A stretch of DNA of 59,167 nucleotides, the filler included, from Sphacelaria rigidula (Eukaryota): NCBI GenBank assembly GCA_964200075.2. It is 8 parts of 8 records of this genome, joined end to end, with 100 filler letters (N's around TTAATTAATTAA, not from the genome) between each part and the next. Parts side by side here need not be neighbours in the genome. Positions count along the whole stretch, not along the records: positions 7,410 to 14,718 come from CAXNAA020015512.1; 7 more parts are not named here. One strand, written 5' to 3'. Numbering within the stretch: position 1 is the first letter of the stretch; the number at the start of each line of letters is the position of its first letter. This document shows, piece after piece, positions 5,445 through 59,167 of this stretch. The position numbers and the translations under genes are program-made. The notes under the pieces were generated by a model that saw nothing but the letters and a program-made list of their open reading frames with translations, did no database searches and was not told the DNA's origin.

Positions 5445-5660
5445 AACCCTAACCCTAACCCTAACTCCAACTCCAACTCAAGGCATACCGACGACCCTCG
5501 GGCAAGGGGGGTCCAAAAGGGTGCCCTAGGCAAAGCGTACGTTTGCAGAACTGATATCGGCGGCACCCGTTTGGACAAAAACGCGGTCTGCGCACGCTAT
5601 AATAGGAGTACTCGGGACTGTCAGCCTCACTTAAGATCCGAATTTCGGTGCCCGGACTAA
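5445..5660 (+). repeat. Dispersed repeat starting with (CCCTAA)3 plus degenerate CTCCAA units
   Basis: aaccctaaccctaaccctaactccaactccaactc followed by blocks homologous to 1280-1485. Confidence 0.6.
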
Positions 5661-7309: not shown

Positions 7310-7409
7310 NNNNNNNNNNNNNNNNNNNNNNNNNNNNNNNNNNNNNNNNNNNNTTAATTAATTAANNNNNNNNNNNNNNNNNNNNNNNNNNNNNNNNNNN
7401 NNNNNNNNN
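7310..7409. other. Artificial contig linker (N44-TTAATTAATTAA-N44)
   Basis: Exactly 100 bp with a six-frame stop motif in the middle. Identical linkers occur at 14719-14818, 22128-22227, 29536-29635, 36944-37043, 44352-44451 and 51760-51859. Confidence 0.98.
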
Positions 7410-7532
7410 TGTTCTTTTTTTTTTTTTCTCAGAGCGTGTTTCAGTTTCGTTTTTCTTGGGTACGTCCATCATGAGACCACTGCTGGACCCCTGGGGGGTC
7501 AGTTCAAGTGCGACAATCAATCAATCAATCAA
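7410..7532 (+). mobile_element. 3' end of a non-LTR retroposon/SINE family with (AATC)n tail
   Basis: cttgggtacgtccatcatgagaccactgctggacccctggggggtcag followed by (aatc)n. Homologous copies at about 51915-52000 (-) and 56370-56463 (+). Confidence 0.7.
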
Positions 7533-7714
7533 CCTGTACGGAAGAACATGAAGTGCCATCTACTATTTGGCCCTTATTGAGCGACATCGGTAGTGGCAAT
7601 TCGTGTTGAAGTACAGAAGCGCGATCCTCTGCGTCCTTCTGTTCCTCGACGATCATCAAATGGAGCAATGCCATTTTTTTTTATCGATTTGATTTCCCTG
7701 TGAAAATTGCTTAG

Positions 7715-7798
7715 GGAACGAGGCGGAGAGGCCGGAGACCGAGGCCGAGCCTGGATTCTACGACGGGTGGGGGCCGAACGAGGACGATAATAACCGTG
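7715..7798 (+). CDS. Probable internal exon (phase 1-1) upstream of the peptide-repeat exon: (G)NEAERPETEAEPGFYDGWGPNEDDNNR(G)
   Basis: ttgcttAG acceptor, G|GTAAGC donor, 84 nt open frame, acidic composition; splices in frame to the acceptor at 11084/11085. Confidence 0.6.
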
Positions 7799-7839
7799 GT
7801 AAGCACAGTACCGGTAGCGCCAATGACTCTCAACCACTA

Positions 7840-8383
7840 CAGTGGTGGGCGGTCTAACTATTTAGGGGTGTTTTGGGCATTTCTTCGCGTCCTATTCTTC
7901 GATAGGACTCGAAATTGCCAGCGTCGGTAGATTTTGGTACAATGAACAGATCATCCTCGAAACACAGTGCCCAAGTCAGTGCCAGTTGGTGTCATCGGGC
8001 GAAACGAGTAACAACTCCGTTCATCAGGAGGGTGTTATTGACCGTGAAATAAAGTTTTCGGCCCTAGTGCAATAAGTAGCCAGAAATTCTGAAAATAAAA
8101 CTGTACATTTCTTCACAAATATGATCGGGACAGGCTCGATAGTCCGGAAATACAAAAGAGTAGGAATCTGGGCTGAAACGTGGCAGGACCCCCGATCGGT
8201 CAGCCCGTAAGTCACTCAATATTGATTACAGATGTTTTTTTTTCTTGGAATATCGAGCGGATACAAATATCTTCAGATTCCCCATGTGTTAAGCGACGTC
8301 AAGTGAAAAGTGTCCGAGAAAATCGCCAATTACGAAAAAAACACAAAATGCCATGAAATGAATAGTTAGACCGCCCACTACTG
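7840..8383. mobile_element. 544-bp MITE, Tc1/mariner-like (TA TSD)
   Basis: 23-bp TIR CAGT(G/A)GTGGGCGGTCTAACTATT with TA on both sides; second copy at 15354-15897. Confidence 0.9.
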
Positions 8384-9179
8384 TAAGCACCGGAGCCCAG
8401 CACAACGACAAAAATATTATGTTTCACCGGCGTGTGTCTTCCCTGTTTCCCATAGTTTTTGAACCGGGTTTGACTACAAGCTGGGCCAGCTGATCGTTTT
8501 GTTTTCGGCCATGAGGTGACGCGGTGGTGTTGATGAGGGGAGTTAGGCGTAGAAATTATGCCGACTTCTTGTCAACACGCGCAACATCTCCGAGGGAGCA
8601 AATAAGCAAAAAAAAACGTTGGAGCGATTTGAAATTTCATTGAAGACCGGAAAAGGCCACAACTCGGTGAAATAAAACGACGGTATCCCCAGTCACGAAT
8701 TTTGTACTTTCGCGCAGAGGATCCTCGGTGAAGTTTGTCTCAGTTTGTATCAAAAGTCCCATAGTGGGCCCAGCGTGAAACACTTCGTGGTACTGCTGGG
8801 CCGCCGCTGTCTTTCAAGGAATGGAGAATACTCCAATTGCAGAGGTCACGAGTTTGAATCACCCAAATCTTTTTGTTTCCTCGCAACCTCTGATTCCGTC
8901 GTTCAGGTAATGAATTATGCACAGTACATCCTCTTTTTTCTCCGAGGCAGAGTCTATATGACCAAACTGGTCTGCCGTTCACAGTGATATGCTTAAATCG
9001 GGCTGAGTCGGAAAAACTGAAGTAGTTGTGAGCTAAAGGGCGCTACGTTATACCACTGGCCCAGCTCGCACAATGCTGATAAGTGAGGTTGCGTTCGCCT
9101 ACCGGACCAAAATATGGTCTTGTAAAATCGTCGCCTTCATCATTCGGTTCAAATATTGTGATCGTCAAAACTGCTCTGA

Positions 9180-9651
9180 GGTTACTTCTTATGTATTGAA
9201 AAAAATGAATCTTGTTGAAAAGTGCATTTTTGGCCCTTCTCCGTCGTTTTTCCCCCGACAAAAGGGCTAGGCGGATGTTGACACCTCGGAATGACTTGCT
9301 CTATACGCTGAGACGGTTCCAGAGCACCTTTGCGTTTCCCGTAGGTCACAGTTTCGTTCTTGGCCAAAATTGCATTTTCAATAACAAACGTCCAAGTTAT
9401 AATAAAGCAGGGTGAAAACTGACGTTTTTTTGGTAATTCGACTGTTCGTTGTTGTAAATGCAAGTTCGACCAAAAATGACACCGTGGCCTACGGAAAACG
9501 CAAACGTGCTCTGGAACGGCCTCGGCGAGTAGAGCAAGTCATTCCAAGGTGTCAACATCCGCCTAGCCCTCTTTTCGGGGGAAAAACGACAGAGAAGGGC
9601 CAAACATACACTTTTCAACAAGATTCGTTTTTTGATACATAGGAAGTAGCC
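9180..9651. mobile_element. 472-bp foldback MITE (long imperfect palindrome), PIF/Harbinger-like ends
   Basis: Arms of about 220 bp are reverse complements (for example agggctaggcggatgttgacacct / aggtgtcaacatccgcctagccct); GG...CC ends flanked by TGA and TTA. Confidence 0.8.
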
Positions 9652-11084
9652 TTACATACCCATGTGAATAGCGTCCATAACGAGGTCGTTCGATTGCTCT
9701 GGTCGTTGATGTTTCAAAAGCTTGCCAATATAGCGGGGAATATGAGTGCGTCGTAGAAGCAAGCTTGGCAGCTTGTTGTGCGCCAGTGCGAGCGCCTTAT
9801 CTTGGAAAATGATGTGGCAATCTCATCTGGGTAAAAAGACGTGGCAATATCTGCATGGATATGTAGAGATACGCATTTCCGAGTGCCCTTAACCAATATC
9901 AAGTGACAAGGGAACTAGGCTCCGCTGTATCGGTAACAGAAAATTTCCGCCGAGGATGCACAGCCGTTGTCAGACTTTTAATCGTTATGCGATAAGAGCA
10001 AGTCGATGGGCTTCACGGGCGCTTTATTAGCCACAACACAGAAATGATAAACAAGTCGATGAGCCTGTTGAGGGTAGCTCTGGAGAGTGAAACAAGATGG
10101 GCCCCCCTCGAACTTACAGGCTAGTCTAGGGTGAACGACCAGAGTACGCTCCCAAGCGATCGCTTACGCCTTTTGTTGGAGTTGGGTCGTGTCTTAGCAC
10201 ATGATTTTTCGATCGAAAAAGTGGGGTGTAATAATTATGGGGGTAGCTAATACATTGGCTGGGGTCTCTCAGTATGAATGCCAGGAGATACCATGGTTCC
10301 AGCTCACCAAGCTCCCAACGTAAGCACGATCATACAGACCTGAGACAATGCGTCACGGAACCCAGGGTCTACGAGCAGACCCGCTCATCGTGATATCTTG
10401 CAACGTCTGATAGGCCGTCATTTGATTCCGATCTGATAGGCCGTCATTTTACTCGTCTTAGAATAAAAAAAAGGATATAATTGGAAATACATATAATATC
10501 GGAGTTTTCTTTTTCTCCTCGCCCCCTTTCCCCTCCTGGGACCTCAGAAATCTGGCGAATAAACAACATCGAAAGACCTTGTTCATACAGCCCTTATAAA
10601 TATCAGGGTCTTGTCTAAAAAACGCCGTGAGCAATGGGCCGTTAATGCACCAAAGTATACAGGTGTACGCGGGAGCCTCCCTTTTTGATTATAGCATGCT
10701 ACCGACGTTTTCCCTAGGAGCTTGAGCTAAATATCGACCGTTTGGGATCCAGTTCGCGAGGCACGCAACGAAACTTCGCACACTCGTTGCTTGGACTAAC
10801 TCGGCACGAGTCAGATTCAAATCTTACATATTGAAGCAATCTGTACCGACCTGCACGGGTTTTTATGCTGGGACCCCCAGAAGCCTGTAGAGAGCGCATC
10901 AACCATGTCATGTCGTACACTTCACCCGAGCACAGTCCGCCACAACGGTTCTGTTCCATTGGTCGAATGCAGACGAAAATGTTCGAATAAACGTTTGAGA
11001 CAAACGTCAACAAGGTGCATCGCAATAAACTGGAATATTGACCGCTGCATGCGATTCCTACTGCCGCGCGGTACCGCACACCAG

Positions 11085-11859
11085 GCCTCATGGGAGATGA
11101 CCTCGCTGGCTGGAGAAAAACGTTCCAGGTTACCGATGACTACGACGCGGACCTCGTCTTCCCTGAGGACCTTGAAGAACAGATGCTTTTGATGAGACGC
11201 TCCTTTGATGTGGAAGATCATATGTATCTTGAGATATACTCATTTGACTTGGAAAGGAACGGAGACGCCAGGAGAGCGAGAGGTGCGACTCAAGAAGACA
11301 TGTACTCCATGAGCTACTCGTTTGATCTAGAAAGAAACGGAGACGCCAGGAGAGCGAGAGGTGCTGCTCAAGAATATATGTACTCCATGAGCTACTCGTT
11401 CGATCTGGAAAGAAACGGAGACGTCAGGAGAGCGAGAGGTGCTGCTCAAGAAGATATGTACTCCATGAGCTACTCGTTCGATCTGGAAAGAAACGGAGAC
11501 GCCAGGAGAGCGAGAGGTGCTGCTCAAGAAGATATGTATTCTATGAGCTACTCGTTCGATCTGGAAAGAAACGGAGACGCCAGGAAAGCGAGAGGTGCTG
11601 CTCCAGAAGATATGTACTCCATGAGCTACTCGTTTGATCTGGAAGGGAGCCACAATACCATGTATTCTATGAACTATATTACTCCTGTGATCTAGGAAGG
11701 AACGGAGCCATCAGCGAGGCGAGAAGTGCAGCGCAAGGAAAAATGGATCCCGTGAAGAACCTCATTGATCTGGGAAAGAACGGCAACGACATGAAAAAGA
11801 GAGGTGCAGCGCATGGAGGAATGTTTTCTATGAGCTACTCCTTTGATGTGGAAAAATAG
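11085..11859 (+). CDS. Terminal exon encoding a tandem peptide-repeat protein (26-aa units MYSMSYSFDLERNGDARRARGAAQED); apparent frameshift at about 11674-11680
   Basis: ORF 11090-11695 with a caccAG acceptor at 11084 and an in-frame stop upstream at 11039. Repeat ATGs lie at 11222, 11300, 11378, 11456, 11534 and 11612 (78-bp period). Further units continue in another frame to TAG at 11857-11859. Confidence 0.7.
11222..11660 (+). repeat. 78-bp coding tandem repeat, about 5.5 near-perfect units
   Basis: Directly visible period of 78 nt. Confidence 0.97.
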
Positions 11860-13694
11860 CTTGAAACGTCGTACGTTCGACGACAAGAGTATTTTTGTTG
11901 TGGGAAGGAGCAAGCATCATCGCGAACCAAGCAAGATGGTCTTTGCTTCGACTACGAGTACACAAACGTTTGCTTGGCTTTTCTTTTCTTCGGCCCCGAC
12001 ATGTCACTTCGGTTTTCGACGTTCTTGCCGGGTTGCACACGATTTCATTGGACATAGCGTGTGATCAATTCCCCACGGATTCCCCACGGATTCTCGCATA
12101 TCATTTTCCGCTATAGTACTGCCCCTCTCGTTTGGTCGGTCGTTTTCATTCGAAGATTTCTTGTCTCGGTTTTAGTTGTAGTCATAGCTCCACTGATTCT
12201 GCTTACGAAACATGCGTTCCATTAAAGCGACTGAAACCTGTTCGATGTAATTTCGGAAACAAGCCTTACTTGATGCTCAGGTTGTTTGTGTGTCTTCGTG
12301 GCGTTTGTGTTTGTCCGGAGTGGTATGATCGATGCCGCACGGTCACCTTCGTAATGCGTGAAAAGACTCGCGTGCTCAGGTGAACGCATCGGAGTTCAAA
12401 CACGGCTGTGGTTAGGGTTAGTGTTGGTGTTAGTGTTAGTTACGGTCAGGGGCGTGGTCCCTGCGAGGAATGCTTCGATTGGTTTTGAAAAACGTCGATC
12501 CTGAGGTGTTCTGAACAACAACGCGGTCCTCTAGGCACGCAGTCTTGTCACGCATGACAATCCTTGTGTCCTGTCTTGAACGTATTCTTGCGGGAGACTG
12601 GAACGTTGTGTTGTGAACGTGGCTCTCGCTTCAGCGACTGCCACATGAAGACTTCGATGCGTTCTGAAGGAAGACGTACCGAAATCATTCGGAATTTTGC
12701 TCAAGTCTGCCTTTTGCTGCTTCATGCCTCCATGGGTTTCTGTTCAATCGTCGTTCCTTTTTCCTGCTCCCCTGGCTTGTATCGCGTCGTTGTGTTTGTG
12801 TTGACCGTGGATGAGGGAGGAGTATAATTCATGTTTCGATGGGGACATGAATTATTGCCCCGTCGCCGAGTATCACGTGTACAGACAGGTGAAGCTGTTC
12901 GAATGCAGCCATGACATGTGTTAGCTGGCAATGCTAAAGTAGAGTGACTCCTGCCCATTTTCCGTGTGTTTTTTTTGTTGGGTTTTGGGAGATAGTGCTC
13001 GTTCTCCACTTTGTAGGTGAAAGTGTTCGCATGACAACGGAATGGACACAATAATTGCGCTACTTTCTCACCACTTTGTTTCGTTCCAATTTTGTTGAAC
13101 GTCGTGTTGTTTTGTAGCCCCATACTTGAATCTTCATATTCTGAATGCAGCTGTGATTCGTGTTGGCCGGAAAGATTCATACAGTGGATCGTGTGTGTCC
13201 TCCACTTTTTGTGATGTCTTCACTTTCACTTTTATCATTTCGTAGTGTTAAGTATTGGTTCTGCGCATAAATTATACGTGCGCGGTTTGATATGAATAGT
13301 TAGTAGTGAAAATAATAGGGGTATTCTCTGACAGAGTATACATGCGAGTCATACATGGTATCCCGAGTTCATTGCTGCTTGGCTGTTCCTCAGAAACATT
13401 CGAGGTGTATATCTCAATAGTCGGTGCGGTGTTGGTGTGGGCGGGTGAGGCGGTGACCCGCTGGCAGCAGTGATTGGTTAGTGTGGAAACAGTGCGGTCC
13501 CCACGGGGGGGGGTATTCATGATCATGCATGCCATAGTCATAGGGGCCCGTGTTATCGAGTCCAAAAATGTGAGAAGCGCGACGTGATATTGGTGGGAGC
13601 CCGGAAGATATTTTCCAAAAATGTGTGAACCGTCACTTCACTATCAATATCACGAAATGATGATCATTTCCCTTGTTTCGTCAAAACACCGCCC

Positions 13695-14170
13695 AAGACC
13701 ATTGGCCTCGCATCCCTACAAAGCCGGGACGAAGCACGTCGGCTTCTCGCCGGAGAAGGCTCGCACTCAATCACCAAGCGCCAAGCGCCGTGGTGTGTTC
13801 GGCGAGTCGCATGAAGGGTGAGCTGCATCGTGCCAAAGTTGTTCGGCCCGAGGCGTACTGGTTTCATCACATTTGGATCACAGCCTACAATGCGTTGCTT
13901 CATATTCTGGTATCGCCACTTCCCGAGACAGCCACGGTTACACTGCCTCATGGGTGTCTCACCATTTGAACAATGTACAGGACGATCATCCCCTTTACAC
14001 AGAGTTGAGATTTTTCCACCGCGCACAACATGATTTACCTCGACCACCACTACGGTTACCGCAAAAAAACGCAAGCGAGAAAACCCCCCGATAACCTGAC
14101 TGCCTAGCTTAAGCATTGAACAACGTGTTTTACAGCGTCATTGCCAATTGACGCCAGCCCTTAACAGGGC
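13695..14170 (+). repeat. Dispersed repeat family; other copies at about 34452-34880 and 56566-56662
   Basis: All three copies share cattg(g/a)cct(c/t)gcatc(c/t)ctac(a/g)aagccgg. The first two also share tgtgttcggcgagtcgc, caccattt(g/a)aaca, gagaaaa and tacagcgtc(a/g)ttgccaa. Confidence 0.8.
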
Positions 14171-14818
14171 GGCGGCGGGGGAATTGCCGGTTTCTAGATC
14201 AACGGCGAAGCTTTCGAAATCAAACTGCATGTTTCCATTTACTTTCTAGGTAGCCGCAAACTTAGGAAGCCGGAAAAGGTAAAATTTCGCTTGAAGTCAA
14301 GAAATGGGGGTCGTCGACCAATCAAAAGTGGCAAAACGATGAGCTATGTTCTGTGTGTCCGAATGGCGCCGCCCACCGGCGGCAATGACAAGATGTATCG
14401 CTTTGGGGACACGGATTGGAAATACATGAGACGTTTCTCGGAGCAATTTTGGACACGCTTGCCCCCTCTACTGTTGTCACGACAGCTGCACAGATCACAG
14501 CATATCAATAAAAGCGAAAGTTCAATACCCCAATGAAACCACGGTGAAGAAGTACTGCGGGGGTCAAAACACACCAATGGAAGGTAACAAAAAACGAGCA
14601 TTGACGGCGAAAAAGCTGCCCCCCCCCGCCGTCAACAAGTTCTGACGAGTGATGCTACAGTAGGGGTACACAAATATTTTCTGAGGTTAGAATTGTTAGG
14701 AGCCCCTTATCTCATCCANNNNNNNNNNNNNNNNNNNNNNNNNNNNNNNNNNNNNNNNNNNNTTAATTAATTAANNNNNNNNNNNNNNNNNNNNNNNNNN
14801 NNNNNNNNNNNNNNNNNN

Positions 14819-14880
14819 AACCCCCCTGCTCAACCATCAGAAGGTTACGAGGTTACCATCTGAGCCACCGGGGCGACCGG
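14819..14880 (-). mobile_element. tRNA-derived SINE head, same family as 59077-59167
   Basis: Reverse complement reads accggtcgccccggtggctcagatggtaacctcgtaaccttctgatggttg, with an A-box TGGCTCAGATGG. Confidence 0.75.
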
Positions 14881-15353
14881 TATGAGTATGGCAGTTTTGA
14901 TGGATGATGAATGTCCGACTTTGCTTGTTAAGGTGTATTGACTTTGGACTCATCCTACGATAGGGGGGGGGGGATTTTGGGCCACGTCTTGCACGAAATT
15001 TCGAGTCAAATCGTCGTTGAAAGCAGCAACGGTTGTTCGAACGAGCTTGTTGTGGACTAAAAACGCTCATCCATACTGCATGACACCGTTTGAAATCAAA
15101 TACAAGCGCAACGCAAGTGTTGCAGGTCGTCTGACACACCTATGAGCCTCTTTTTTCGTGCAACCAAATACCCCCCCCCCCCCTATCGGAGGATGACTCT
15201 TTGGACTGGACGTGACGATATTGGTGAAGGTGGGCGTGGTTCTTTCCCATTCCGCTATGAACTCTGAGGAGGAACAACGGTTTTTAGAGTGAAGTGGTGT
15301 AAGTAAACGGGACTCTCATCACTCTGGAAAAATTGCTCTGAAAAAACTTCATA

Positions 15354-15897
15354 CAGTAGTGGGCGGTCTAACTATTCAGCGCCGTTTTTTGGATTTTCCT
15401 GGCGTACTACTCTTCGATAGAACTCGAAATTGCTAGCGTCGGTAGATTTTGGTTCAATAAACAGATGACCTTCGAAAAACAGTGCCCAAGTCAGTGCTAG
15501 TTGGTGTTATCGGGCGAAACGAGTAAATACCCGTTCATCAGGAGGGTTTTATTGACCGTGAAACACAGTTTTTCGGCTCCAGTGCAATGAGTAGACAGAA
15601 TTTCAAAAAAATATATCTGTATATTTTTTTACAGATACGATCGGGACAGGATCGATTGGCCAAAAATACCGAAGAGTAAAAATTTCGGCTGAAACGTCGC
15701 AGGACCCCTGATGAACGGTCAGCCCGTAAGTCGATGAATATTGAGTACATATGTTTCTTTTTTCTTCGAATGTGGAGCGGATACAAATATCTTGTGATCC
15801 TCAATGTAATAAGCGGCGGCAAGCAAAAAGAGCCCGAGAAAATCGCCAGTTACGAAGAAATCACAAAATGCCTCAAAATGAGGACCGCCCACTACTG
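15354..15897. mobile_element. 544-bp MITE, second copy of the 7840-8383 family
   Basis: CAGTAGTGGGCGGTC TIRs, TA flanks and collinear internal homology. Confidence 0.9.
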
Positions 15898-16410
15898 TAG
15901 CGGAAAGTTTACCGTTACCGGCTATTTTTTCCTTCCACTTTGGCTCTAAGATTTGAAAAAACGTTTTCCAAAACTCTTTAATATGCGAAGTTTTTCTGCA
16001 GTTGGCCGGTCTCCGAGAAAAATGAGCGATCCCCGAGAAAAATGCAAGTCTGGGCAAGAAACTGCATCGGAAAAACGCACAGACGAGCTGGAACCGTCCC
16101 AATGAGTACCGCAAGTCACATCAAGATGTCAAAATCCGCCTACCACTTAACCCTTCGACCGCGAGCGCCGCCTCACAACAGTTGTACAGGCTGACACTCC
16201 CGAGGCATCCGGGGATTTCCAGAGGTCGGGGGGGGGTCTTCTAGCAGAGCATCCGAGAAGCTCACGGACTCGACCATGTGTATTTCGAAGTTTCCCGCAG
16301 AAAATTATGAGCCGTGCAGGAGGCCCGAGAGGCGCGGGATGACCATTCTGACCAATCATGGTAATCGAAATGTGCACTATAGTTCCCCTAGCGTGAGACT
16401 AGCGTAAGGC

Positions 16411-17053
16411 TGTATCGCTGTCTACCCCCATGACTCATCTTGGTCATGGTAAATCAATCATAGATGACAGACTACAAACGTATATGCTTTGCACTTCAGT
16501 ATTTGAGTGCACTGTTGTTCAGTCCTGTCTCAGCTGCTTCGTCCTAGCTGCATACCAGCACCTGACATTACACAAACGGCGCAACACGCGAGCCCCCTCC
16601 GCGAGTATCCAGTGCACATTGCGATTAACGCCCACGTCGACGGAGATGCGACCGGTATTGCGGACCAGTCATTGGAGGTTTGCGTATACTTCCCACATCG
16701 CCCTCGAGAGTTCGCTCACGAGGCTTATAGCCTCTGCCAGACGATCTGGACAAGAGGGCTATTCAGTGAGGGACTTCTCCAGGGCGATGTGGGAAGTATA
16801 CGCAAACCTCCAATGACTGGTCNNNNNNNNNNAGAGGGCTATTCAGTGAGGGACTTCTCCAGAATCCACTGGCCTCACGCTCTATAAGAACTCCTCTTAG
16901 AGCTTCCATTCACGAAGTAAGCAACAGCAGCCCACTGTCTACACATCAAAGGCTACACGGTAAGGGTCATCACCCACACTGTACCCTGTCACATAATCAT
17001 CATCCAGTATCATACATGTTAAACGCAACGGCTTGGCACCATTTTGGGCTACA
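16411..17053 (-). repeat. Putative 3' LTR of gypsy element 1
   Basis: TGTA...TACA termini, preceded on the minus strand by G-rich TTGGGGGTGC just after the integrase/chromodomain end; contains a 10-N gap. No 5' LTR is present to confirm it. Confidence 0.5.
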
Positions 17054-17722: not shown

Positions 17723-17792
17723 GGCTTAGACCGCGAGATTAGTCTTTCTGGATCATGCATACTTTTTTTTCACTAACCTTGCGGTCTGAGGG
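17723..17792. mobile_element. Short piggyBac-like MITE inserted in the gypsy integrase
   Basis: Homologous to 30958-31057 and 45718-45815 (cttagaccgcgag...ctggatcatgcatacttt); flanked by TTAA and TCAA. Confidence 0.8.
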
Positions 17793-20700
17793 TCAACCTT
17801 GTCACGCAACGCGTCAGCATTCATGACATCGATTTTCCACTCGCCGTCAGTGGCAGAAACCAACGCTGATAACGCGGTACGCGGCGCCCGTCCAAACATC
17901 ACACAGTATGGAGTGTAGCGGTATCGTTCACGAAAAGACGTATTCAGCGCCCACTGAGCTGCCCGTAGAATATTAACCCAATCCGACACCGGTCGTCTCT
18001 GTTGTGATAAAATAGACATCAGCGCACGAATAACCTCCTTCACCATAATACGTTCACATGCACCGTTGGACCATGGGGTGTATGCAACAGCAAACCACTG
18101 CAACAAATATTGAGCCGTGACCTCATCTGTACAAGCTCCGATCGGCCTCAGACAAACGAAATTAGATAAATCATCCATTATGACTAGTACGTATCGAAAA
18201 CCATCGTCCTCAGGCAAGCCATCATCACCTTCAGGCCCGCTACTCCCGACGTAGAGAAAGTCAAAGTGAACCACCCCACCTGGCGCAGTACCATGCACAG
18301 TACCGCCAAACGGACGAGGTACAATTTCACCAGCACGAGTGTCTACACAGTGTAAACACTGGCGAACAAACTCGCAAACCTGAGAATCCATGTGAGGCCA
18401 CACACAGTATTATTTCAGACGAAACAAAGTCGGCGCCGCACCACGGTGCCCAGCCGATCTCATGTGAGCGCACACCATAAGGCGATTTTGCAGAGTCTTA
18501 TCCTCTGGCGGAATCCACAGAACGTCGCGACTGCCAACATGTACCCGAAACAAACCATCATCAGCCAAGGTAGTTTGACCGAAGGCCGTGGGAAAAGAAG
18601 TTACACCGTCGCCGACTGTTTTTTGCTGCGCATTGCGAATTACATCTAACGAGGGCAGCGAATCATCAGCATCACACGGGCTGTACACAGCAACGGAACG
18701 AATAGGTATGGTAGGGACCTGTACCCAACTAGAGAACAAATCTCCCCAACATTTTCTTTCTCCCGGGATATGTTCAATTGCGTATCGGTACTGACCTAGC
18801 ACACCTTTCCAATTCTCCAGTCTCGGTGCCATGGCTTTTGTGACGGAGGTGCCACACTCCTCAGAGCTGAAAATGTACTTCAGATTACGATTATCAGTGA
18901 AGATACGAACACCACCCCAGAGCAAATACTCGAGTCTACGGAATGTGTTTACAATCGCGAAACCTTCCTTATCCACTGTCGCCCACCGCAACTGTGAAAC
19001 CTTGAAACTACCACTCAGAAACCCCAAAGGTTCGTGTGACATATTTTCCAACGCCATTCCACTGTTAAACTCTGCGACAGGCACCTGCGTCAGGAAAGAC
19101 CCCCAGTGAAGGCCACTTGCATCGGGAAACATTAACACAACGCACCCAGGACGAGGATGATACAGTGGGACCGCTTGCGCCACCAAATCCTGCGCTGCAC
19201 GCCATGCCCGCACCCGATCCTCCGTCCAGGCGTCTTCCAGAATGACACGATTTCGCGCCACCCGCTTGGTCCTACGCGACGCCCCTGCCATCAGCTGTTC
19301 TAAAAACGCACGAAGCAGCGCTACTACTCCTGCCATGCGAGGTAGCGAAGTTCGCAACTAAGTGACCGCCTGCAAAAACTGCATCAGCTCACTTGCATTT
19401 TGAGGACGTCGCATTGTACTCAGTCCTTGACTGCGTGCAGGATCATGAGACACAGTTCCGTGCGAGTACACGTTGCCACACCAAACTAGTTCTCGAGAAA
19501 AAACGTGCACTTGAGAGCTGCGACGAAGAGACCAACACTTTCCAAACGTCCGAGAATCTTGTCTAACAACGTCAGCAACGATTCTTCTGAATCGGCGAAA
19601 TAGAGAACATCATCGACCCACACTTTGCAATCCAATCCCTGCAAAAGATCAGTCATCACACCCTGAAAATAGGATGTAGCATTCAGCACACCTGGAGGAA
19701 CACGAGTTGGCGTAAAAGGACCTTCTGGTGTGACGATCAGGAAGAACTCTTGTGCGTCCGGTGCCAGAGGCATTTGCCAATACCCCTGGAGCAAGGTCAA
19801 TTTGCCAAGGCATTGTGCTCCCAGTAACTCCCGCATGCCCTCCTGACCCGGCATTGCCCCCGGAGACTGCTCTATCTGCGCGTTCACCGCTTGGTAGTCA
19901 CTGACCAAACGGAAAGTATCTTTTTTCGGCATTGCCATCGCCGGACTCGCCCACACTGCTTGTATGTTCCTCACCACCAAACCAACCGCCACCAACGCCG
20001 CTATGTATGCAGCCAGCCACCCGGTTTTCACCGGATCGTATCGCCTTGGCTTGGTCTTTACAGCCTTCGCCTGCGGCTTGAGTTGCACGCGCATCGGCTC
20101 TACGCGCGCTGGCGGATCACCGCACAGCGCACGTCGAAATGTATCTACGCGACGAGACAAAATATCGCGCAGACGATAAGTGCCCTCGGCGCTCAGGCCC
20201 TGCTGTTCGGCCTGTCGCACGCTATCTGCCAGCGCGCGATCCCTCCCCTCCTTCTCTTCTGCAGGGTTCAGAAACATGTCCGGGCCCCAGTCCACCAATC
20301 TCTCCACTGCCTCATCCGCAGGATTTTCCTTCACACGCTCAGATTGAAACGCATCGACAGAGATGGTCACCCGCCTAGCCGCTAGATGACTATAGTTTTC
20401 GACGTCCGTCTGAACCGGCACGGCATGGGGGCGTAACTTCTCCAACGCCAGAGGATACAAATCAATGCCGATCTGCTTCATTGTTGCCATACCGAAGAGA
20501 ATGACATCATCCCTGCCGGGAAAAATAGCGAAGGTGATAGGTGGCATCTGCACAGCCCCCCACGGAGTGCGTACAATTACGGAGATTGGGACCGTCTTGT
20601 GTGTTGCCGTCGCGAGCTCTCCCGTAGCGGTGTGAGCGGTTTGGGGACCGTTTTGGAACGGCAACTGTAATTGAGCGTTGCCGCAGAGCGAACACAACTG

Positions 20701-22289
20701 GGCCAGCAAACCCACGCTGATAGACGTAAGCGCGGACCCAGAGTCCAGAATAACTCGTGCCATCAATGATCCTACCGTACCTGCCAAAGAAAGGTCAGCA
20801 CGGAGGCATTGTGCAGTGCGATCGACAGGTACTACACCTGTTGGGGAGAAACCTTGATTGTTGGCTACAGTCACCTGTCGCCAAGGCTGCGCTCCAGAAA
20901 GTGGCATCGTCGACACCGAATCGGCGTTCCACCCCGACCAAGATTCCGTATATGTAGACGGCGCCGTTGCCGCCGTCGCAGTAGCGGGAGCGATACCAGA
21001 CACGGAGCCTGCCTGGCCGGTGGTTTGCGAGCTGTCCGCTCCAGCATCACCCATCGAAGTACCACTCCCTCCTACATAAACTGCCCACCACGGCATGGAC
21101 GGGCCAGAAGAGCGTGAGGCAGGTTCTGAAGATGCAGCCGAAAATATTGTAGTGGAGGATCCACCATCCGTCGCCTCTCGATTGCTGCCGCGGCCACCGC
21201 GCCCGCGTCCACCATGACCTCTACCTCCTCCTCCATGACGACGGCCGCTGGATCCTGACTAATCTTTCGGACTTTTTTTATTAGCGCCCTTGGCGCGATG
21301 CTTGGGACCATCCTTTAAAAGAAGTCCATGGTCGCCACAGTTATAGCATGTGCAAGTAGATGTCCCTCGCGCAGACGACTGCTGCTGCTGTTGTTGTTTG
21401 CGGCGAGATCCACCTGTACTTGCCCCACCATCACGGCGTTCTACAGATTCTACAAGTTTCCACTTGTCAACAGCCTCAAATACCGTCTTCATCACTAAAG
21501 TCGGGTTTCGTTTCCACCCCTTCCCGTACTTCAAGAGCGTCTTGACATGAGCCTTAAACGCCGGAGGCGCAATACCGTCCACCATGGCAATAGAAACTAA
21601 CTCTGCCGGACCTGGCAGCCAGCTTTTGTCTTGTGCCCTGTACACGGCTTCGACCGACAATGTTTTTGAAAATTACTGTTCCAAATTTGAAGTGATTGTC
21701 ATTGCCCTATCCCGTACAGACAATGGTCCGTCTTGGGCCATCCTGAGAATGCGCTTGATATCAGCCGCAGCCCGAGTTTTATCCTCTCGACCGTCGGTGG
21801 TGGTATACCCAGCATGCTGCTTCGCAGCATCTACGATCTCCGCTGCGGTCATTGTTCGTCCGTCTGTGTACAGGATTTCGAAACATTGACGAATGTAGGC
21901 AGGAATCAACTGCCCAACGGGCACTTGCGCGTGTGTCACTCATCCTTCTTCATTACGCAACCGCTGTTCGTAATCGAGATAGGCCCCGAAAAACTTGCGA
22001 CTACCTGCTTCGTTCCACTCTTTACCATGTTGCGGCGGATGTAACGTCTCACCCAATACCAGTAACAACAAATTGTGAGAATTGAGGTTTAACTTCGAGA
22101 TGAGGCTCAAGCCTAAAACAGTGCTTTNNNNNNNNNNNNNNNNNNNNNNNNNNNNNNNNNNNNNNNNNNNNTTAATTAATTAANNNNNNNNNNNNNNNNN
22201 NNNNNNNNNNNNNNNNNNNNNNNNNNNGATTCAAAGACCAAGTCTCTCTTCACCGTCGATCTGTTTTCGATCGTGAGATCTGTCCCGAT

Positions 22290-22742: not shown

Positions 22743-25700
22743 TTGTTGACATTGTGGTATAGCGTCCGCTCGGTACTCTAAGTCTGCTGACGGCCCGTAG
22801 CCGTGAAGACGGAGACGGTACTTATAATTTTGATGGCTCTTTCTTCCCGGACCTCGTTTGTGGCCCACCACCTTGTCAACGATGTAACGTTCAATTCTTG
22901 GTTCGTTACTTCCGGACGGTCAAGTTGGGGCAAGGGTAGTTTTTTGCCTAGGAAATACTCGTCGAGTCGGTCAAACTCGGGAGCTGGGGGTCGTTTTCGT
23001 GGATAATATTGCTTAAGGTGAGCGAGGTGTACCGACGTCTCTTTCGCATCTTCGCTTACCTTGACCTTATAGACAACCGGAGAAATTTGTTTGACGACCT
23101 TGTATGGCCCCCGCCATGGTAATACCAACTTTGGATTAGGACCGTCTGTGTCTTGGTGTGGCCTGAACAGCAGCATTTGTTGGCCAGGTTTAAAGACAGG
23201 GTATGGCTTGAGCTTATCATTGCTTGCCTTTTGTTTTTCTGCTCGTTTTTTCAAGTTGCGCCTTGCAATTTCAAAAGCTATCTGCAAGTTTTCTTTTGCC
23301 TCTTTCGCGTATTGTTCAGCATCCACAGCGTGCCCTTTTTCGGAAATGCCCAAAATAATGTCGACAGGTAATTTTGGTTGACGTCCGAACATGAGAAAAC
23401 AGGGTGTTTCTTGCACTGAGGTGTTGAATGATGTATTTATACGCCATTTGCACAAAGGGTAGCATAGATGCCCAGTTGTCTTGTTCGACCGTACTATGCA
23501 TGGCTAACATAGCGTGCAAATTGGAGAGTACGCGTTCTGAAACAGAGTTGCCTTGAGGGCGGAATGGTGTCGTGCGTGTTTTGTCAAAGTTCAGGATCAA
23601 CTGCAACTGGTGTATTACCCGGTTCTCGAACTCTTTACCGCAATCAGAATGGAGTTTTTCGGGTATCGCAAATGTCGTGAAGACACGGTCTACCAACATT
23701 CTTGCCACCGTACTGGCGGATTTGTTCGGTATGGGAATAAACAGTGCATATCGTGTCAGATGATCCATCACAGACATTACATACTTACACGGCACACCGG
23801 CTGCCGAATTTTAAATCGTCTTGTATTCGACAAGATCTATTGATATCCGCTCAAAAGGTCTGTTCACAGGTACGTGGCCTACAGGCAATTTCGGACGGTT
23901 ATGGGCCGTCTTTCTTCTCTGACATGAGTGGCAACGTTGACACCACTTTCGCACATCTTGGCTCAATGTCGGCCAATAATATTTGTTCTTAATCTTTTCA
24001 TACGTCGATTAGAATCCACGGTAACCTCCAGACAACACATGATCGTGATAAGAGTGCAAAACGAAATTAACCAGAGCTTCTGGTAGCACTAGTCTATCGC
24101 GGTCGGTGCCTTTTTTTCGAAGGTTCCCTGGCAAGTATGACCTGAACAAAATACCGTCACGGAGCAAAAAGTAGGACATTGAAGTCAGTGTCTCCTTTTC
24201 CGGGAACGGTGCGTCGTCGTCTGTCAGATATTGAATATAAGAGCCATAATATAATATTATTTTGCCTGTTCGGTTCGCAACTTGTCTTTGTTTACAGACG
24301 TGAAAACATATGTAGCGCTTGTGTGGGTAGCATTGACGGTAAACAGCTCTCTGTCGCTCTGTACTGGTTTGAGATTATCGAACTCATCCGCTGAAAATTG
24401 AAACGGTTGGTGCGGTTTCTTCGCGTGCAATTTGGGATCCTCTGGGACGTTCCGACAAATTGGCGCGAGCAGGGGTTTGACCTCATCATTCTGGTCTTCT
24501 TCAAACCGAAAGAGCCTTGATAGAGTGTCCGGAACGATATCTAATTTCCCCGTTTGTGCTTCACAGTGAAGTCAAAGGACTATAAAGCTATCGCCCATCT
24601 TTTCAACATATTGCTCGTGTCTTGCATGGAATAGAGGTACCGTAGCGCTGCATGGTCTGCCACACACGTGAAATGTTTTCCCCATAAAAACGGCCTTCAG
24701 TGTTGTATAGTTAATACAACTGCATAACATTCTTTGGGTGTAGCAGAGTAGTGCCGCTGAGCATGATTGAAACGCTGACTGAAATACGCTACGATTGCAG
24801 TTTTGCCCCCCTTTATCTTGGGTGAGCACCGATCCAGCACCCTCTCCAGACGCGTCAACTTAAATGGTGAACTCCTTTGAAAAGTCTGGGAAGTGAAGGA
24901 CAGGAGCGGTGGTGAGAAGTCTTTTTACTTCGGCAAAAGCTGCATCGTGTTCGTGATTCCAGCGTTTTGCTACTTCCTTGGCTGCCTCTTTTTTCGTTAG
25001 ATCTACCAACGGGGCGATTACCTGTGCGAGATTCGGAATAAATTTTCTCAAAAAATTAATCGTCCCTAACACTGAACGTAATTTTTTTATGTTCGTTGGT
25101 GTAGGTAAATCTAAGATGGCCTTTACGCGGTCTTCCCTAATTTTGATCCCGTCAGCAGACAAAGTGTAGCCGATCTACTTGACCTCCTTGGGACCAAACT
25201 GTGCTTTAGAGGGCTTTAGGGTAAGACCTGCTTTTTTCAGTGCTTTGAACATGTCTTTCAGAGTGAGGTTATTTTCCCATGTGGAGGAGCAGGCGATCAA
25301 ATCATTCATGTACACCAACAGACCGCTCCTGGGTCCAAAGTGTGAGAAAGTAAGAGCTATTATTCGCGAAAAAATGAACGGGGAAGATGCCAGGCCGAAC
25401 GGTAGCCTGTTGAATACCCACTTACCCTTCTTTGTAACAAAGGCCGTTTTTTCTTTCTCCTCCGCTATTGGGATCTGATGGAACGCGCTCTGTACATCAA
25501 ATACAGAGATAAATTTGGCGCCTGCCACCGTATCTACATGACTTTCCAAATTAGGCATCGGCCATGACTTGTGCACAAGACTTTTATTGAGCGTGGATCT
25601 GTAGTCAACACAAAATCGGGCAGTACCATCATGTTTAGCTACGATCGTCACTGCCGAGCCCCATGGGATGGGTCTCTGTTCGATTATTCCGTCTTTTTCC

Positions 25701-28700
25701 ATCTCCTGTACACAGTTGTCGATGACTTCTTGAATTCTGGGGTTGGCTCTGCACGGGGCCCGATCGATGGGCTTGGTGCCCGGGACAAGGGGAAAAGTTG
25801 CTTCCCCAATTGTACAACAACCTAATTCTCGTTGTGACAGTAGGAGACGGACCTGTATTTGATCCATAGGTCGAGCACTTGACTCTTCTGATTTTCAGAA
25901 AACGTGCTATATTTAAATGCATTTTGGAGCGCTATTGTAAGTTCTTCCCGGGCGTCAGTATTTTGCCGTTCAGCTTGTGAAATTGCACTGACGTTTTCCG
26001 TCGGTTATTTGTTTCAACTTGTGAACGTTCACCGGCGTTTCCCGTCGGGTCATTTTTTCCGACTTGTGTGATGTGTCCCAAAAGCAAATTTCTTGGGAGT
26101 TGGACGTGTCTATTCGACGGGTTTGCTACTTGTACCATAGCTGTTTTGTTGACCGCTGACCAGATGCAGGCTGTGCGTGCCACAACGAGGCGGCTAAAAG
26201 CATCCGGTACTTTGATGGATTGGAGGTCTTCACTCGTTACAAGTCTTGGCTCAATGACCGCTTTAGTCGTAAATTTTGGCGGCTCATTTGTTTCGACCAA
26301 GAGAGCCATCTCACTTCGCGGCGGGACGGAGCATCTTTTTGAGAGATACACGAGTACCTTTTCAGCCGATGCTACCCGTATGACAGAACAATAATCATAT
26401 TCTGAAAACTTCGGATGAACTTTTCTGTCTCTTCTTCGATGAGTAGCTGTCAGGCGAACTGTTGAACTACGAAACGCCAGGGTTTCTTCCTGCCAATCGA
26501 GAATCCCGCCAAATGCGCTCATCACCGAATTCTCCATCAGCATGAGATCTGGCTTGAGATCGCTGAGGAAAAATGCTTCAACGGGCAAGGTTATGTCACC
26601 CAGGGTGAGGTCAAAGCGAATAAATCCCTTTACCGTGATTGGGGAACCGTCAGCACTACGTAGATCTGTAGAACGTGATGGGACGGATTGCATGTCCTGC
26701 TCTCTCAAAGTAGGATGTGCACGAATGAACTTGAGACTGACAATGGGAAGATCAGAAGCAGTATCAATGATTATGGCCGGAACCTCCATTCCGTTGACTC
26801 TGGCGGGAACCTGCACTCTAGGTGATGCAGGTCGTAACGTTGCCGGCTTCCTAGGATAGCGGGCCAACAAAGACATGAAGAACGGCTCGAATTCTGCCGA
26901 GCCTGGGGGCAAAAATTTGGATCTGTGCTTTTCATTATTTTCCCGAGACGTCTTGGTTACAAAAGCAGCTTGGGGCGCATTTTCCAGGTGGCGATGCTTC
27001 CCACGTAACATCTGATCCTGACCTGATGTATTCCCCACTTGCTCTTTTATTCTAGCCGTTGCAACTGTAACCCCTTCCACATGTACTCCCTTACATGACC
27101 TCATAGAAGAAGCTACGCCTTGACTAGCCAACCGCACACGTTTCTTGCCCTTTTTATCTCCCACCAGAGGGTCGGCACCCATTCCGTGGTGCACAGTATT
27201 TTCTGTACTTCTGCGTCACGCTTGCTACCTTGAAAAAATTTCCGATAGACTGCACGGTAGTTGCTCTTTTCGCTTGTACACGTGTCCCTTCGCTGGGCGA
27301 GGGCCCCTGCTCTGGGCACCATCAAACACCTAACGCTAACAGCTGCTCTTTATGTGTCTTCGCTAGTTGACAGTGTTCTATGGAATGATTGTGTTTGAAC
27401 CTGCACGGCTTGTATGTGCAACGCTCGCCTTTCTTCCTTGATTGACTATCAGTTTTTCCCCGCCCTCTACTCTCTGACCGACTACGTTTTGCGGTCTCAC
27501 TGGGAGAAGGTGATGGGCCCATGTTGTCCCCCGGATGTGAAGAACGTTTTTTCGACCTTCCGCGGTCTCCGCCAGCCCACCGTTTTTCTCTCAACAACTT
27601 TTCAATTTGCTGCCCTTGATCGGCAACTGTTTCCGCGAGCTGAGAGGAGTTGTGCATGGCGAAAGATGAAACGTGGGTCGGAGAGGGATTGGAAATTTCT
27701 GGCTGAGTCCCGCGCAAATTGTTGGTTTCGTGTTTTTTGGCACGGGCTCTTGCAACCTGAAAGCTATGAGTTGGATCTTCGCGTACGATTTCAACCCTGA
27801 TATGTGGCGGCAATCCTGCTTCAAAAGCAGCCGTCTGACTGGCTTCCCGTGCGAAGCTAACGGGGTCCCTACCATGTGGCGTGACTCGTGCGGCTTCTGC
27901 ATAAAAACGAGAGTGTGCTTTGGACACTTCTAGCGCGTAGGAGTCTACAGTGTGGTGGTCCTTAAATTTCAGCTCCGCTATACCCCGGGCGAGGATTGCA
28001 ATGCGATTAGGTGGAGAGTATAAATTCGTATAAGCATCGACCCACTCGCCCCATGATGCGGGGGCCCTGGTGGATACTTCACCTTCTTGTGCCCGAAGGG
28101 CTTCGAGATTCGCCTCTGTCCGCCATTCTAAGGTACCTGTTACGAGATCCGTGTACGCGTCTAGAGCTGTGTCCCTCAGTAAGAGCTGTAAATGCTTGAT
28201 GCATCGGCGATCGATTCCCTCTCGCGTGCATTGATCCTGCGAGTTAATTTCAACTCGGGACCGGTACTGTCGCATTATCGTTGGAATGTCTTCAGTTGGT
28301 AGTCCTCTCAAAACCATACTAGAACCGAGATCGTTTTGTTTGAGCGTGAATCGAGGAGTGTGTACTATAGTGCTGATAGCACTTGATCGAGTTTGGTTTT
28401 CATGCGAGGGGGTCAAATTTGGTGCCGCTTGGGGTGAAATATTACCACCAGGCACGTGAGGTAATGCCTGAGGGCTACTGATCACTTGTTGGTTCGTAGG
28501 GGATGCGTAACCTACGTTGCTCGGGTGAAGTTGGGCGGAAGTCAGCGAGGTTTGAGAGTTTGTGCCGGGCGAATGATTTGGTGCAGTGACTTGATCTACT
28601 ACATTATCAGTCCCCCGGGACAATCGAGGGGGCGTGGTAGGTGCCTGCACACTACGAGAGCTTGGCGGCGTCGTGTCATTAGGTGCATGATCACCGCGAC

Positions 28701-29535: not shown

Positions 29536-29705
29536 NNNNNNNNNNNNNNNNNNNNNNNNNNNNNNNNNNNNNNNNNNNNTTAATTAATTAANNNNNNNNN
29601 NNNNNNNNNNNNNNNNNNNNNNNNNNNNNNNNNNNCATAACATGGGTGTCACACGAATTTTGAAGATCCGGGGCCGAAGATCTGTTGCCATAACATCCGG
29701 CCTTA

Positions 29706-31679: not shown

Positions 31680-36487
<4,808 letters not shown>

Positions 36488-37486
36488 TGAGCATGGTGTA
36501 CCCTATCCTAACTACATATGCATACTTCGTGCAAGAACTCTCATGGACACGAACTATTTTTTATTTTTTTCATGTGATGCGGGTTACAATGTGGAGCGTT
36601 CTGTCGGAATCTGGCCCCCAGTTATGGTCACAACGCTCCAAATCACAAGAGCGCGAAAGCGATACTATTAACAGGTGGTGTATCATGCTCTGCCCCACAC
36701 AAGACAACGTTATTCCGCACCACAGACCAGCAAATAAACATATACCTTACGCCGAAGGCGGCTGCTACAGAGCCACGGCCGAAACACATTCGATTCCCCA
36801 ATGGAAGCCTCGAGCATACCAGTGCACAGTGCTTTATTTCGGTGATTTTTATGCGAAATGATGCAGAATGATGGAGATGCGTTCCGAAACAACTCTTCGG
36901 ATTCACGCACACGAAAACTGCTTCCCCCCCCCCCCCCGCAGGCNNNNNNNNNNNNNNNNNNNNNNNNNNNNNNNNNNNNNNNNNNNNTTAATTAATTAAN
37001 NNNNNNNNNNNNNNNNNNNNNNNNNNNNNNNNNNNNNNNNNNNCGGCTTTTGAGTTTAACCTCAATTTTTTTTTCAACCCCATTTTTGAAAATCGGCTGT
37101 TAACTGGCGCTCTCGTAGCCATTTCCAGTTAAACTCCAGTTACAATGAAGATAAACAGTATTCACTGGTCCAATCACGGCGAGGCAAAATTTATCGACCA
37201 CATCCGAACGACCAGTGGAGGGGGGGTGTCACCCGGAGTGATGTTACTGTAAAGTTGGTGTACCCTGTCTCTGGCCCACAACAAAGCCTTCGGAGCAAGA
37301 AAAAGTCCAAGTGGTAGGGGCTCGGATTCCCGATTTGTTTCATCATTTACTCTTTTACATAGGTCCGACTTCCCATCCCCCCATTTTGTTTTGGGTGACC
37401 ATTCTATATTGAAACCTAGTTGATCACACTAACACGTAGGGCTCGGAGAAATTCGGGAATGAATGTACCCTAGTATATATAACAGC

Positions 37487-49449: not shown

Positions 49450-51006
<1,557 letters not shown>

Positions 51007-53330: not shown

Positions 53331-53439
53331 GCTAGAGATGTCCTTGCCTTCGTCCTCCGTCGATCCTCCGTGGTACTGTACTGTACTGCACTGTGCTGTA
53401 CTGTGCTGGACGAAGTATTAATACTGTACTGTCCCGTAC

Positions 53440-59076: not shown

Positions 59077-59167
59077 ACCGGTCGCCCCGGTGGCTCAGTT
59101 GGTAACCTCGGAACCTTCTGACGGTTGGGTTGCGGGTTCAATTGTCGGAGTGATATGGAATTTTTTC
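59077..59167 (+). mobile_element. tRNA-derived SINE head
   Basis: A-box TGGCTCAGTTGG and B-box-like GGTTCAATT, no acceptor-stem pairing; homologous copy at 14819-14880. Confidence 0.75.

Follow-up and report, generated by a model that had tools for sequence, protein, structure and literature searches.

A 78-bp tandem array encoding repeats of the peptide MYSMSYSFDLE was examined in a 59,167-base window of Sphacelaria rigidula DNA, the window being the whole stretch that was analysed. The array is real, and its coding origin is supported by the ratio of non-synonymous to synonymous differences among the units and by a homologous protein. Judging from its sequence, there is a somewhat better than even chance that the locus is a lineage-restricted single-exon gene, or a recently decayed copy of one, which would specify an acidic, Ser/Tyr-rich protein built of 26-residue repeats and not a secretory precursor of multiple peptides. 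An earlier, sequence-only reading of the same DNA had proposed a secreted precursor that is cut at RRAR|G sites to release several peptides of about 22 residues. That reading had itself named a full-length protein without a signal peptide and homologues without the basic sites as evidence to the contrary; no signal peptide is seen at what appears to be the true N-terminus, the only homologue lacks the sites, and the proposal is not supported. We infer that the protein is not processed into peptides.

Anatomy of the repeat array

The array lies in the second of the eight pieces that make up the window (7410-14718), and only that piece is valid context for it. Tandem Repeats Finder reports it, as the one strong array in the region, at 11250-11644 (5.1 copies, 94% matches, no indels); no other copies of it occur in the window. 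Its units read MYSMSYSFDLERNGDARRARGAAQED, with variants, in an open reading frame (ORF) extending over 11042-11695, which bears out the 78-bp/26-residue units described previously. The features of the locus are as follows:

11042..11695, plus strand: main open frame, stop to stop, 217 codons and TAG, with a non-repeat N-terminus, cores 1-7 and the start of core 8
11049..11051, plus strand: ATG and a following CG, offset by one base from the main ORF; probable ancestral start codon
11090..11092, plus strand: first in-frame ATG of the main ORF, which would give a 201-residue product
11183..11221, plus strand: unit 1, core MLLMRRSFDVE and a two-residue spacer, DH, with no basic site
11222..11299, plus strand: unit 2, MYLEIYSFDLERNGDARRARGATQED, its DNA 78-79% identical to units 3-6
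11300..11611, plus strand: units 3-6, the young homogenised centre, in which four complete 78-bp units are nearly identical (91-99% pairwise)
11612..11659, plus strand: unit 7, intact MYSMSYSFDLE, its spacer cut to GSHNT (30 bp missing) with no basic site
11660..11742, plus strand: unit 8, MYSMNY interrupted by 5 extra bases (about 11678-11682) and continued as SCDLGRNGAISEARSAAQGK in a shifted frame
11743..11820, plus strand: unit 9, MDPVKNLIDLGKNGNDMKKRGAAHGG, in the shifted frame, core strongly diverged
11821..11859, plus strand: unit 10, MFSMSYSFDVEK and TAG, in the shifted frame; probable ancestral C-terminus

Five intact MYSMSYSFDLE cores stand in one frame, flanked by the diverged cores that had been reported at either side, namely MLLMRRSFDVE (11183), MYLEIYSFDLE (11222) and MFSMSYSFDVEK (11821); core 9, MDPVKNLIDLG, is barely recognisable as a core. 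The figure of about ten cores holds as a description of the DNA and not of one protein, since cores 8b-10 require another frame. All of the spacers previously listed are present, RRAR|G four times and RKAR|G and KKR|G once each. The near-identity of units 3-6, beside the old and diverged units 1, 2, 8, 9 and 10 at the edges, would be explained by homogenisation of the centre. The 217-residue ORF has an isoelectric point of about 4.5-4.7 and contains 40 Asp and Glu, 19 Ser and 17 Tyr residues.

The main frame ends at the TAG of 11693-11695, within unit 8 and after the 5 extra bases. Cores 8b, 9 and 10 can be read only in the frame 11638-11859, whose TAG stands directly after MFSMSYSFDVEK. This tail frame is open for 73 codons, for which the probability by chance is 0.01-0.03, and its openness up to the last core is consistent with a break of rather recent date. 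Contigs from two studies cover that break unchanged and show that it is no assembly slip: one from run X3 (record 12, 11556-12066) and one from run X4 (record 21, 11556-11717) match the window there without differences or gaps. Relative to the window, X4 has G>A at 11772 (synonymous) and T>A at 11825 (F>Y, converting MFSMSYSFDVE to MYSMSYSFDVE), both elsewhere in the tail frame. X4 also shows a 26-base deletion at 10406 and scattered single-base differences of about 0.2-1.2% in unique contigs of the piece, which place the locus in at least two slightly different genomes.

Coding signature of the units

Across the ten pairs formed by the five complete units, the proportion of synonymous differences (pS) in the proposed frame is 0.305 and that of non-synonymous differences (pN) 0.067 by the Nei-Gojobori method, a ratio of 0.22, against pN/pS of 0.57-1.23 in the other five frames. 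Compared with the consensus, units 2-7 together carry 13 synonymous and 8 non-synonymous codon changes, distributed as 8 and 4 in unit 2, 2 and 1 in unit 3, 0 and 1 in unit 4, 2 and 2 in unit 6, and 1 and 0 in unit 7. Single-base changes on the consensus unit have an expected synonymous share of 0.21-0.27, and if that share is taken as 0.25 the observed counts have a binomial probability of 3.7e-4, rising to 0.011 for a share of 0.35. When states shared between units are counted once, by parsimony, at least 10 synonymous events stand against 8 non-synonymous codons (P 0.0014-0.0097). Within the six YSFDLE codons of units 2-7 there are 7 synonymous changes and 0 non-synonymous ones, and every codon variant named in the sequence-only reading was found (TCA/TCG, TTT/TTC, GAC/GAT, TTG/CTA/CTG and TAT-TCT); its statement that variation in the YSFDL(E) core is synonymous is therefore correct. 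Its further suggestion, that selection has acted on the peptide and that the array is not a neutral minisatellite, is supported by the frame-specific ratio, by the 13 changes against 8 and by the existence of a homologue at the protein level.

The distal units behave variously. Unit 10 differs from the consensus by 3 synonymous and 3 conservative changes, unit 9 by 3 synonymous and 17 non-synonymous codon changes, and units 8b and 9 taken together by 8 synonymous and 26 non-synonymous, a proportion near that of neutral change. By codon-position guanine-plus-cytosine (GC) content the ORF could not be told apart from known exons or background, except in the non-repeat N-terminal part, where it is 0.68, 0.38 and 0.60 at positions 1, 2 and 3.

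Three DNA sequencing runs tile the whole piece with contigs, X1 and X3 from study P1 and X4 from study P2. Over the bins 11070-11313 and 11802-12289 the summed depth, which is not a copy number, is 27-33 in X1 (unique contigs 20-31), 14-16 in X3 (unique contigs 9-15) and 32-35 in X4 (unique contigs 25-40); bins over the repeats on either flank reach 1e3 to 3e6. Depth like that of unique contigs, beside such flanks, argues against a high-copy element, and the concern raised earlier, that the array might belong to a high-copy transposable element or minisatellite, is not borne out, depth being ordinary in all three runs. A further run, X8, considered to be RNA by guess only, has a summed depth of 13.3 in bin 11558-11801, with the adjacent bins of the array at 0; among the X8 pieces listed none covers the array, and the run has no bearing on expression either way.

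A single homologue

A HMMER pass over 1.84 billion representative proteins returned three matches at E <= 0.001, of which one, P0003 (123 residues), is a true homologue, with a pairwise BLASTP E-value of 4e-18 against the main ORF. The alignment spans the non-repeat N-terminus (35-41% identity) and the S-Y-S-F cores; positions I3, P4, T5, Y9, T11, P12, G13, L14, D17, D18, A20, G21, K24, V28, D30, Y32, D33, A34 and D35 are invariant. P0003 is the only member of its cluster and derives from one 3007-bp contig. The tail frame (P0001) gave no BLASTP alignment with P0003; by eye only, the C-termini are alike, S-Y-S-F-D-V-E-K in the tail frame and S-Y-S-Y-H-Q-E-Y in P0003. The other two matches, P0002 (1319 residues, E 8.4e-6, 22% identity) and P0004 (515 residues, E 2.4e-4), are long repeat proteins of another unit type, and we read them as periodic or compositional matches and not as relatives.

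Other searches add no relatives. In word-indexed protein searches the 217-residue ORF had no match at E <= 0.01 among 8000 candidates of 119-380 residues, and a two-sequence profile (A2) recovered only P0003 among 4271 candidates of 61-216 residues and nothing among 8000 longer ones. Pattern matches in metagenome contigs (160), prokaryote genome contigs (198) and viral contigs (117) yielded 0 confirmed cases each, and the degenerate pattern M-[YF]-S-M-S-Y-S-F-D-[LV]-E occurs in 0 stretches of the metagenome contigs. Pfam gave nothing above its cut-off, the one entry being SEN2-like_N at 19.9 bits against a cut-off of 26; Atlas had no usable match or neighbour, and the string SYSFDLE had no occurrence in a literature search.

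The N-terminus and the question of secretion

P0003 starts M-R-I-P-T-T, and the main frame opens P-L-H-A-I-P-T-A directly after a TGA stop; the N-terminus of the homologue thus coincides with the opening of the frame, its methionine lying two codons past the TGA. The 12 bases from this stop to the I-P-T codons contain no AG, and hence no splice acceptor by which an upstream exon could be added in the main frame. Immediately before ATT-CCT-ACT the bases read ATG-CG (11049-11053), one base out of frame, and it is probable, on this sequence, that loss of 1 base after the second codon turned an M-R-I-P-T start into the present arrangement. Translated from the ATG at 11049, the present sequence yields a 47-codon frame that ends at 11192 and overlaps the main ORF.

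The cores of signal peptides score about 2 or more on the Kyte-Doolittle scale. The highest mean over nine residues, a crude measure of a signal peptide, within the first 38 residues is 0.73 for the stop-to-stop ORF, 0.48 for the product from the ATG at 11090 and 0.14 for P0003; the highest anywhere is 0.80 in the ORF and 0.96 in P0003, and there is no membrane segment. A hydrophobic N-terminus is therefore lacking in P0003 and, at what appears to be its true N-terminus, in the ORF, contrary to what a secreted precursor would possess. The sequence-only reading had attributed the missing signal peptide to N-terminal exons lying off the contig, which does not follow, because about 3.6 kb of the piece precedes the array. 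Between 9600 and 11300 no ATG-initiated frame has a clearly hydrophobic start; the best has 7 hydrophobic residues in 10, in short frames of 31-40 residues unlinked to the ORF.

Basic sites at the repeat junctions

Basic sites occur at six of the nine junctions in the array (RRAR at four, RKAR at one and KKR at one, the last beyond the frame break), and the remaining three (DH, GSHNT and SEAR|S) have neither an R-x-x-R nor a dibasic site. The ORF contains five R-x-x-R sites at an exact spacing of 26 residues. Five of the six basic sites amount to about one independent observation, because they lie in or at the edge of units 3-6, and evenly spaced RRAR motifs within a young repeat block are accordingly to be counted with caution, as about one observation and not five.

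In P0003 none of the three core junctions has a Lys or Arg, and the cores abut directly (...SYSFHLEE-LDLTSYSFHLGE-LDLTSYSFPLEEE...). The protein has 0 R-x-x-R motifs, and its sole dibasic pair, KK, is in the N-terminal part. In the long spacer, GDGSMGNAYGVED in P0003 and GDARRARGATQED in the array, RRAR corresponds to SMGN. The assertion that the spacer keeps a basic site thus stands for six of the nine array junctions and fails for the other three and for all three in P0003.

Predicted structure

The core S-M-S-Y-S-F-D-L-E, read from the sequence, alternates polar and hydrophobic residues and is followed by N-G and then an Arg/Ala-rich linker. Such alternation is the pattern of an amphipathic beta-strand, and N-G is a common turn pair. 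AlphaFold2, run on the single sequence, returned 11 strands and no helices, with a mean predicted local distance difference test score (pLDDT) of 55.7 and a predicted template modelling score (pTM) of 0.58. Foldseek against PDB listed 199 matches at E <= 10, of which 0 reached E <= 0.001; 2b0r_A ranked first (E 0.046, TMq 0.26), and beta-helix folds predominate in the top rows. According to the available part of PMC11795689, AlphaFold2 over-predicts unrealistic beta-solenoids for repeats, and because of this tendency the beta model is given little weight.

Proposed origin and possible decay of the locus

The ancestral gene would probably have had its start at the ATG of present position 11049 (M-R-I-P-T...) and its end behind the last core, at the stop of 11857-11859. 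Its array may have grown, and its centre been homogenised, through unequal crossing-over or replication slippage. What selection preserved would be the strand-turn-linker architecture of the whole protein and not a cleavage site, and a whole-protein repeat of this kind explains why the core is kept in both proteins and the basic residues are not. The present copy carries a gain of 5 bases in unit 8 and has probably also lost 1 base after the ancestral ATG. Whether it now makes a truncated product of 201 residues from the ATG at 11090 or is a young pseudogene is, from the sequence, about an even choice.

Several points weigh against reading the locus as a gene for a repeat protein or as a recently decayed version of one. 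Few events underlie the synonymous excess, most of them supplied by unit 2, and the unit pairs are non-independent; the near-identical units alone give 5 synonymous changes against 4 non-synonymous (P 0.05-0.17), and all ten units give 29 against 43 (P 0.21 at a share of 0.35). The one homologue is a singleton known as protein only. The proposed 1-base loss depends on a coincidence of five bases, which would arise by chance about once in 1000. The suggested beta-strand architecture draws on a residue pattern and a low-confidence model. Finally, the sequence allows a splice that bypasses the break, and RRAR fits the minimal furin-type R-x-x-R, so that processing is chemically conceivable.

Alternative explanations

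Were the gene intact and functional, either an intron would remove the break in unit 8 or the 201-residue form would be its normal product, and the whole protein might serve, for example, as a beta-rich self-associating or scaffold protein. We regard this as unlikely, if by no means far-fetched. It agrees with the open tail frame, with the synonymous and conservative changes of unit 10, with the two X4 differences in the tail frame (the only ones there, one synonymous and the other towards the consensus) and with the occurrence of the same sequence in two studies. GT..AG pairs at least 20 bases apart that join both frames into one continuous frame ending at the 11857 stop number 112 of 585; they weigh little, because any in-register deletion spanning the insertion restores the frame, and an intron within a tandem array is ad hoc. 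The near-neutral changes of units 8b and 9, and an ancestral start that is apparently out of frame, speak against intactness as well. A non-coding minisatellite, in which the open frame is a by-product of a stop-free 78-bp unit whose length is a multiple of three, is improbable. The unit is indeed stop-poor, four of the six frames being open across the near-perfect units, and the array sits amid repeats, with MITE-like (miniature inverted-repeat transposable element) and further high-copy elements less than 1 kb away to left and right; no Pfam family above cut-off, no Atlas neighbour and frame-breaking indels at both ends would also suit it. Set against these are the low pN/pS confined to the proposed frame, the continuation of that frame for some 200 bp beyond the upstream end of the array, across units so diverged that they can be recognised at the protein level only, the codon-position GC of the non-repeat N-terminal part, and an N-terminus shared with P0003 at a level of identity unexpected for non-coding DNA.

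We give very little credence to the locus as an exon of a secreted prepro-protein, from which furin- or kexin-type cuts at RRAR, RKAR and KKR would free several acidic peptides of about 22 residues whose Ser and Tyr may be modified, with a signalling, wall, adhesion or RiPP-like (ribosomally synthesised and post-translationally modified peptide) role. The regularly spaced R-x-x-R sites in the ORF, with one KKR in the tail frame, and a core kept by synonymous-only change in units 2-7 are what such a precursor would display. The array also attains formally the repeat and fragment numbers (at least 3 and at least 4) given for fungal KEX2-processed repeat proteins (KEPs) in the accessible part of PMC6339444, with four RR sites between repeats, and diatom precursors cut at unit ends exist, Sil1p and silacidins being described in the accessible part of PMC4557024. 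Opposed to it are the want of a hydrophobic N-terminus in both proteins, the coincidence of the P0003 start with the opening of the main frame and the missing AG acceptor before the conserved codons, the lack of a clearly hydrophobic upstream ATG frame, the SMGN that takes the place of RRAR in a homologue devoid of basic junctions, the three siteless junctions of the array itself with five of the other six sites drawn from one young block, and the absence of any match to the motif RxL. No modifying-enzyme gene is recognisable either, the 17 other ORFs of at least 90 residues on 7410-14718 having 0 Pfam matches at E <= 0.001. A multi-copy precursor in an alga-like eukaryote that, with no classical signal peptide, reaches a basic-site protease by unconventional secretion or through a spliced upstream exon, its homologue having lost or moved the sites, is an idea in which we place scarcely any confidence; if true, it would extend KEP-like peptide systems beyond fungi and animals.

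Comparison with known systems

The locus is best filed as a gene or pseudogene for a new tandem-repeat protein that is nearly an orphan. It resembles the lineage-restricted orphan tandem-repeat proteins encoded by coding minisatellites, and shares with them a unit length divisible by three, a homogenised centre between diverged edges, almost no homologues, a low-complexity hydrophilic composition and predictions of repeat beta structure or disorder; this is a descriptive class and not a family, and has no defining residues.

R-x-x-R is the minimal furin motif, and the convertases that recognise it act in the secretory pathway. RRAR and RKAR fit that minimum as in substrates of furin and other proprotein convertases, but P2 is Ala and not Lys or Arg, and entry into the secretory pathway is unsupported here. 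Precursors of dikaritin-type RiPPs (ustiloxin-like) are accompanied by neighbouring genes for modifying enzymes, DUF3328/UstYa and tyrosinase; the 17 other ORFs of at least 90 residues on the 7.3-kb piece are without a Pfam match.

The available portion of PMC6339444 defines KEPs by a signal peptide, at least three repeats and KR, RR or KK sites between the repeats. The locus is like fungal KEPs (alpha-factor, Rep1 and ustiloxin-type) in having at least three near-identical repeats (5.1 copies, 94% identity), an RR motif at a fixed place in each unit and a core less variable than the spacer in the young units. It is unlike them in having no signal peptide and in its sites, which comprise RR at four junctions, RK at one and KK/KR at one beyond the break, are missing from the other three and are absent from P0003; nor, to judge from the labels of the runs, is the source a fungus. 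For diatom Sil1p, PMC4557024 (as far as its text is available) reports that residues 1-19 form a signal peptide and that the units close with RRIL or RRNL, and proposes RxL as a general diatom processing motif; silacidin precursors are there described as repetitive and acidic. The repetitive, precursor-like layout of the locus recalls both, and its acidic, Ser-rich composition recalls the silacidins (PMC4557024, same portion). It differs from these in having 0 RxL in the ORF, the tail frame and P0003, no hydrophobic N-terminus and no lysine clusters, and no homology of the locus to the diatom silaffin or silacidin precursors was found. Since the signal peptide of KEPs and the defining motifs of silaffins and silacidins are wanting, the locus belongs to neither group, and a likeness of working, through release of repeated peptides, would be an analogy with low odds.

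As a lineage-restricted coding minisatellite, the locus exemplifies a homogenised centre, diverged edges, a synonymous excess, a single distant relative and indels at both ends. If expressed, it would be a candidate for study of the origin and decay of repeat proteins; if processing into peptides were true after all, it would be a notable repeat-peptide precursor system outside fungi and animals.

Sequence surrounding the array

The window consists of eight pieces of 7308-7309 bases, separated every 7408-7409 bases by seven linkers of the form N44-TTAATTAATTAA-N44:

7310-7409: linker
14719-14818: linker
22128-22227: linker
29536-29635: linker
36944-37043: linker
44352-44451: linker
51760-51859: linker

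The pieces are separate parts of the assembly set end to end, and sequences on opposite sides of a linker are therefore not genomic neighbours. A separate N10 gap lies at 16823-16832. No tRNA genes were found in the window by ARAGORN and no Rfam matches in the whole window; a scan for bacterial promoters and terminators, not applicable to a eukaryote, gave none above shuffles.

On the piece that carries the array, a MITE-like element about 550 bp long, bounded by terminal inverted repeats of some 25 bp, lies at 7838-8385, and recurs, 83% identical, on a different piece at 15352-15899; its depth in the DNA runs is 1e4-1e5, that of unique sequence about 30. Long terminal repeats around the array had been suggested by direct repeats at 7871-8361 and 15386-15881, some 7.5 kb from each other, an idea that was rejected because the copies are this inverted-repeat element and stand on different pieces. 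A long hairpin at 9179-9652, with 207-nt arms that are 84% complementary and 20 nt apart, also has a high copy number in the DNA runs; it probably represents a further element of the foldback or MITE type. Downstream, a very abundant repeat occupies 13510-13997, with a summed depth of 1e6 to 3e6 in X1, X3 and X4 and 1e5 to 2.5e5 in X8; numerous variant joints in it leave out about 155 bases (13541 to 13696), and related copies are present at 34488-34871 and 56563-56656.

On other pieces, Ty3/gypsy-type sequences on the minus strand (17753-21258 and 22778-29532) contain RVT_1, RT_RNaseH, integrase core and Integrase_p58_C domains and are adjoined by ORFs of 427 and 736 residues without a Pfam match. 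Parts of a DEAD/DEAH helicase ORF occur on the plus strand at 49354-49866 and 50587-51006, about 700 bases apart, possibly with an intron between them. Other pieces of host genes, at 53335-53805 (minus strand) and 35798-36106 (plus strand), are a Glyco_transf_7C or CHGN-like piece and a LETM1_RBD match that is weak and below cut-off. A 60-nt inverted pair at 14822-14881 and 59077-59136, 88% complementary and tRNA-like by eye, may be a tRNA-derived short interspersed nuclear element. Interstitial telomere-like runs of TTAGGG/CCCTAA type lie at 5447-5464 and 57887-57910. Together with the Ty3/gypsy, helicase and glycosyltransferase family 7 pieces, the TTAGGG-type runs mark the source as a repeat-rich eukaryote. 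A degenerate telomere-like run near 12410-12450 falls within the high-copy bin 12290-12533.

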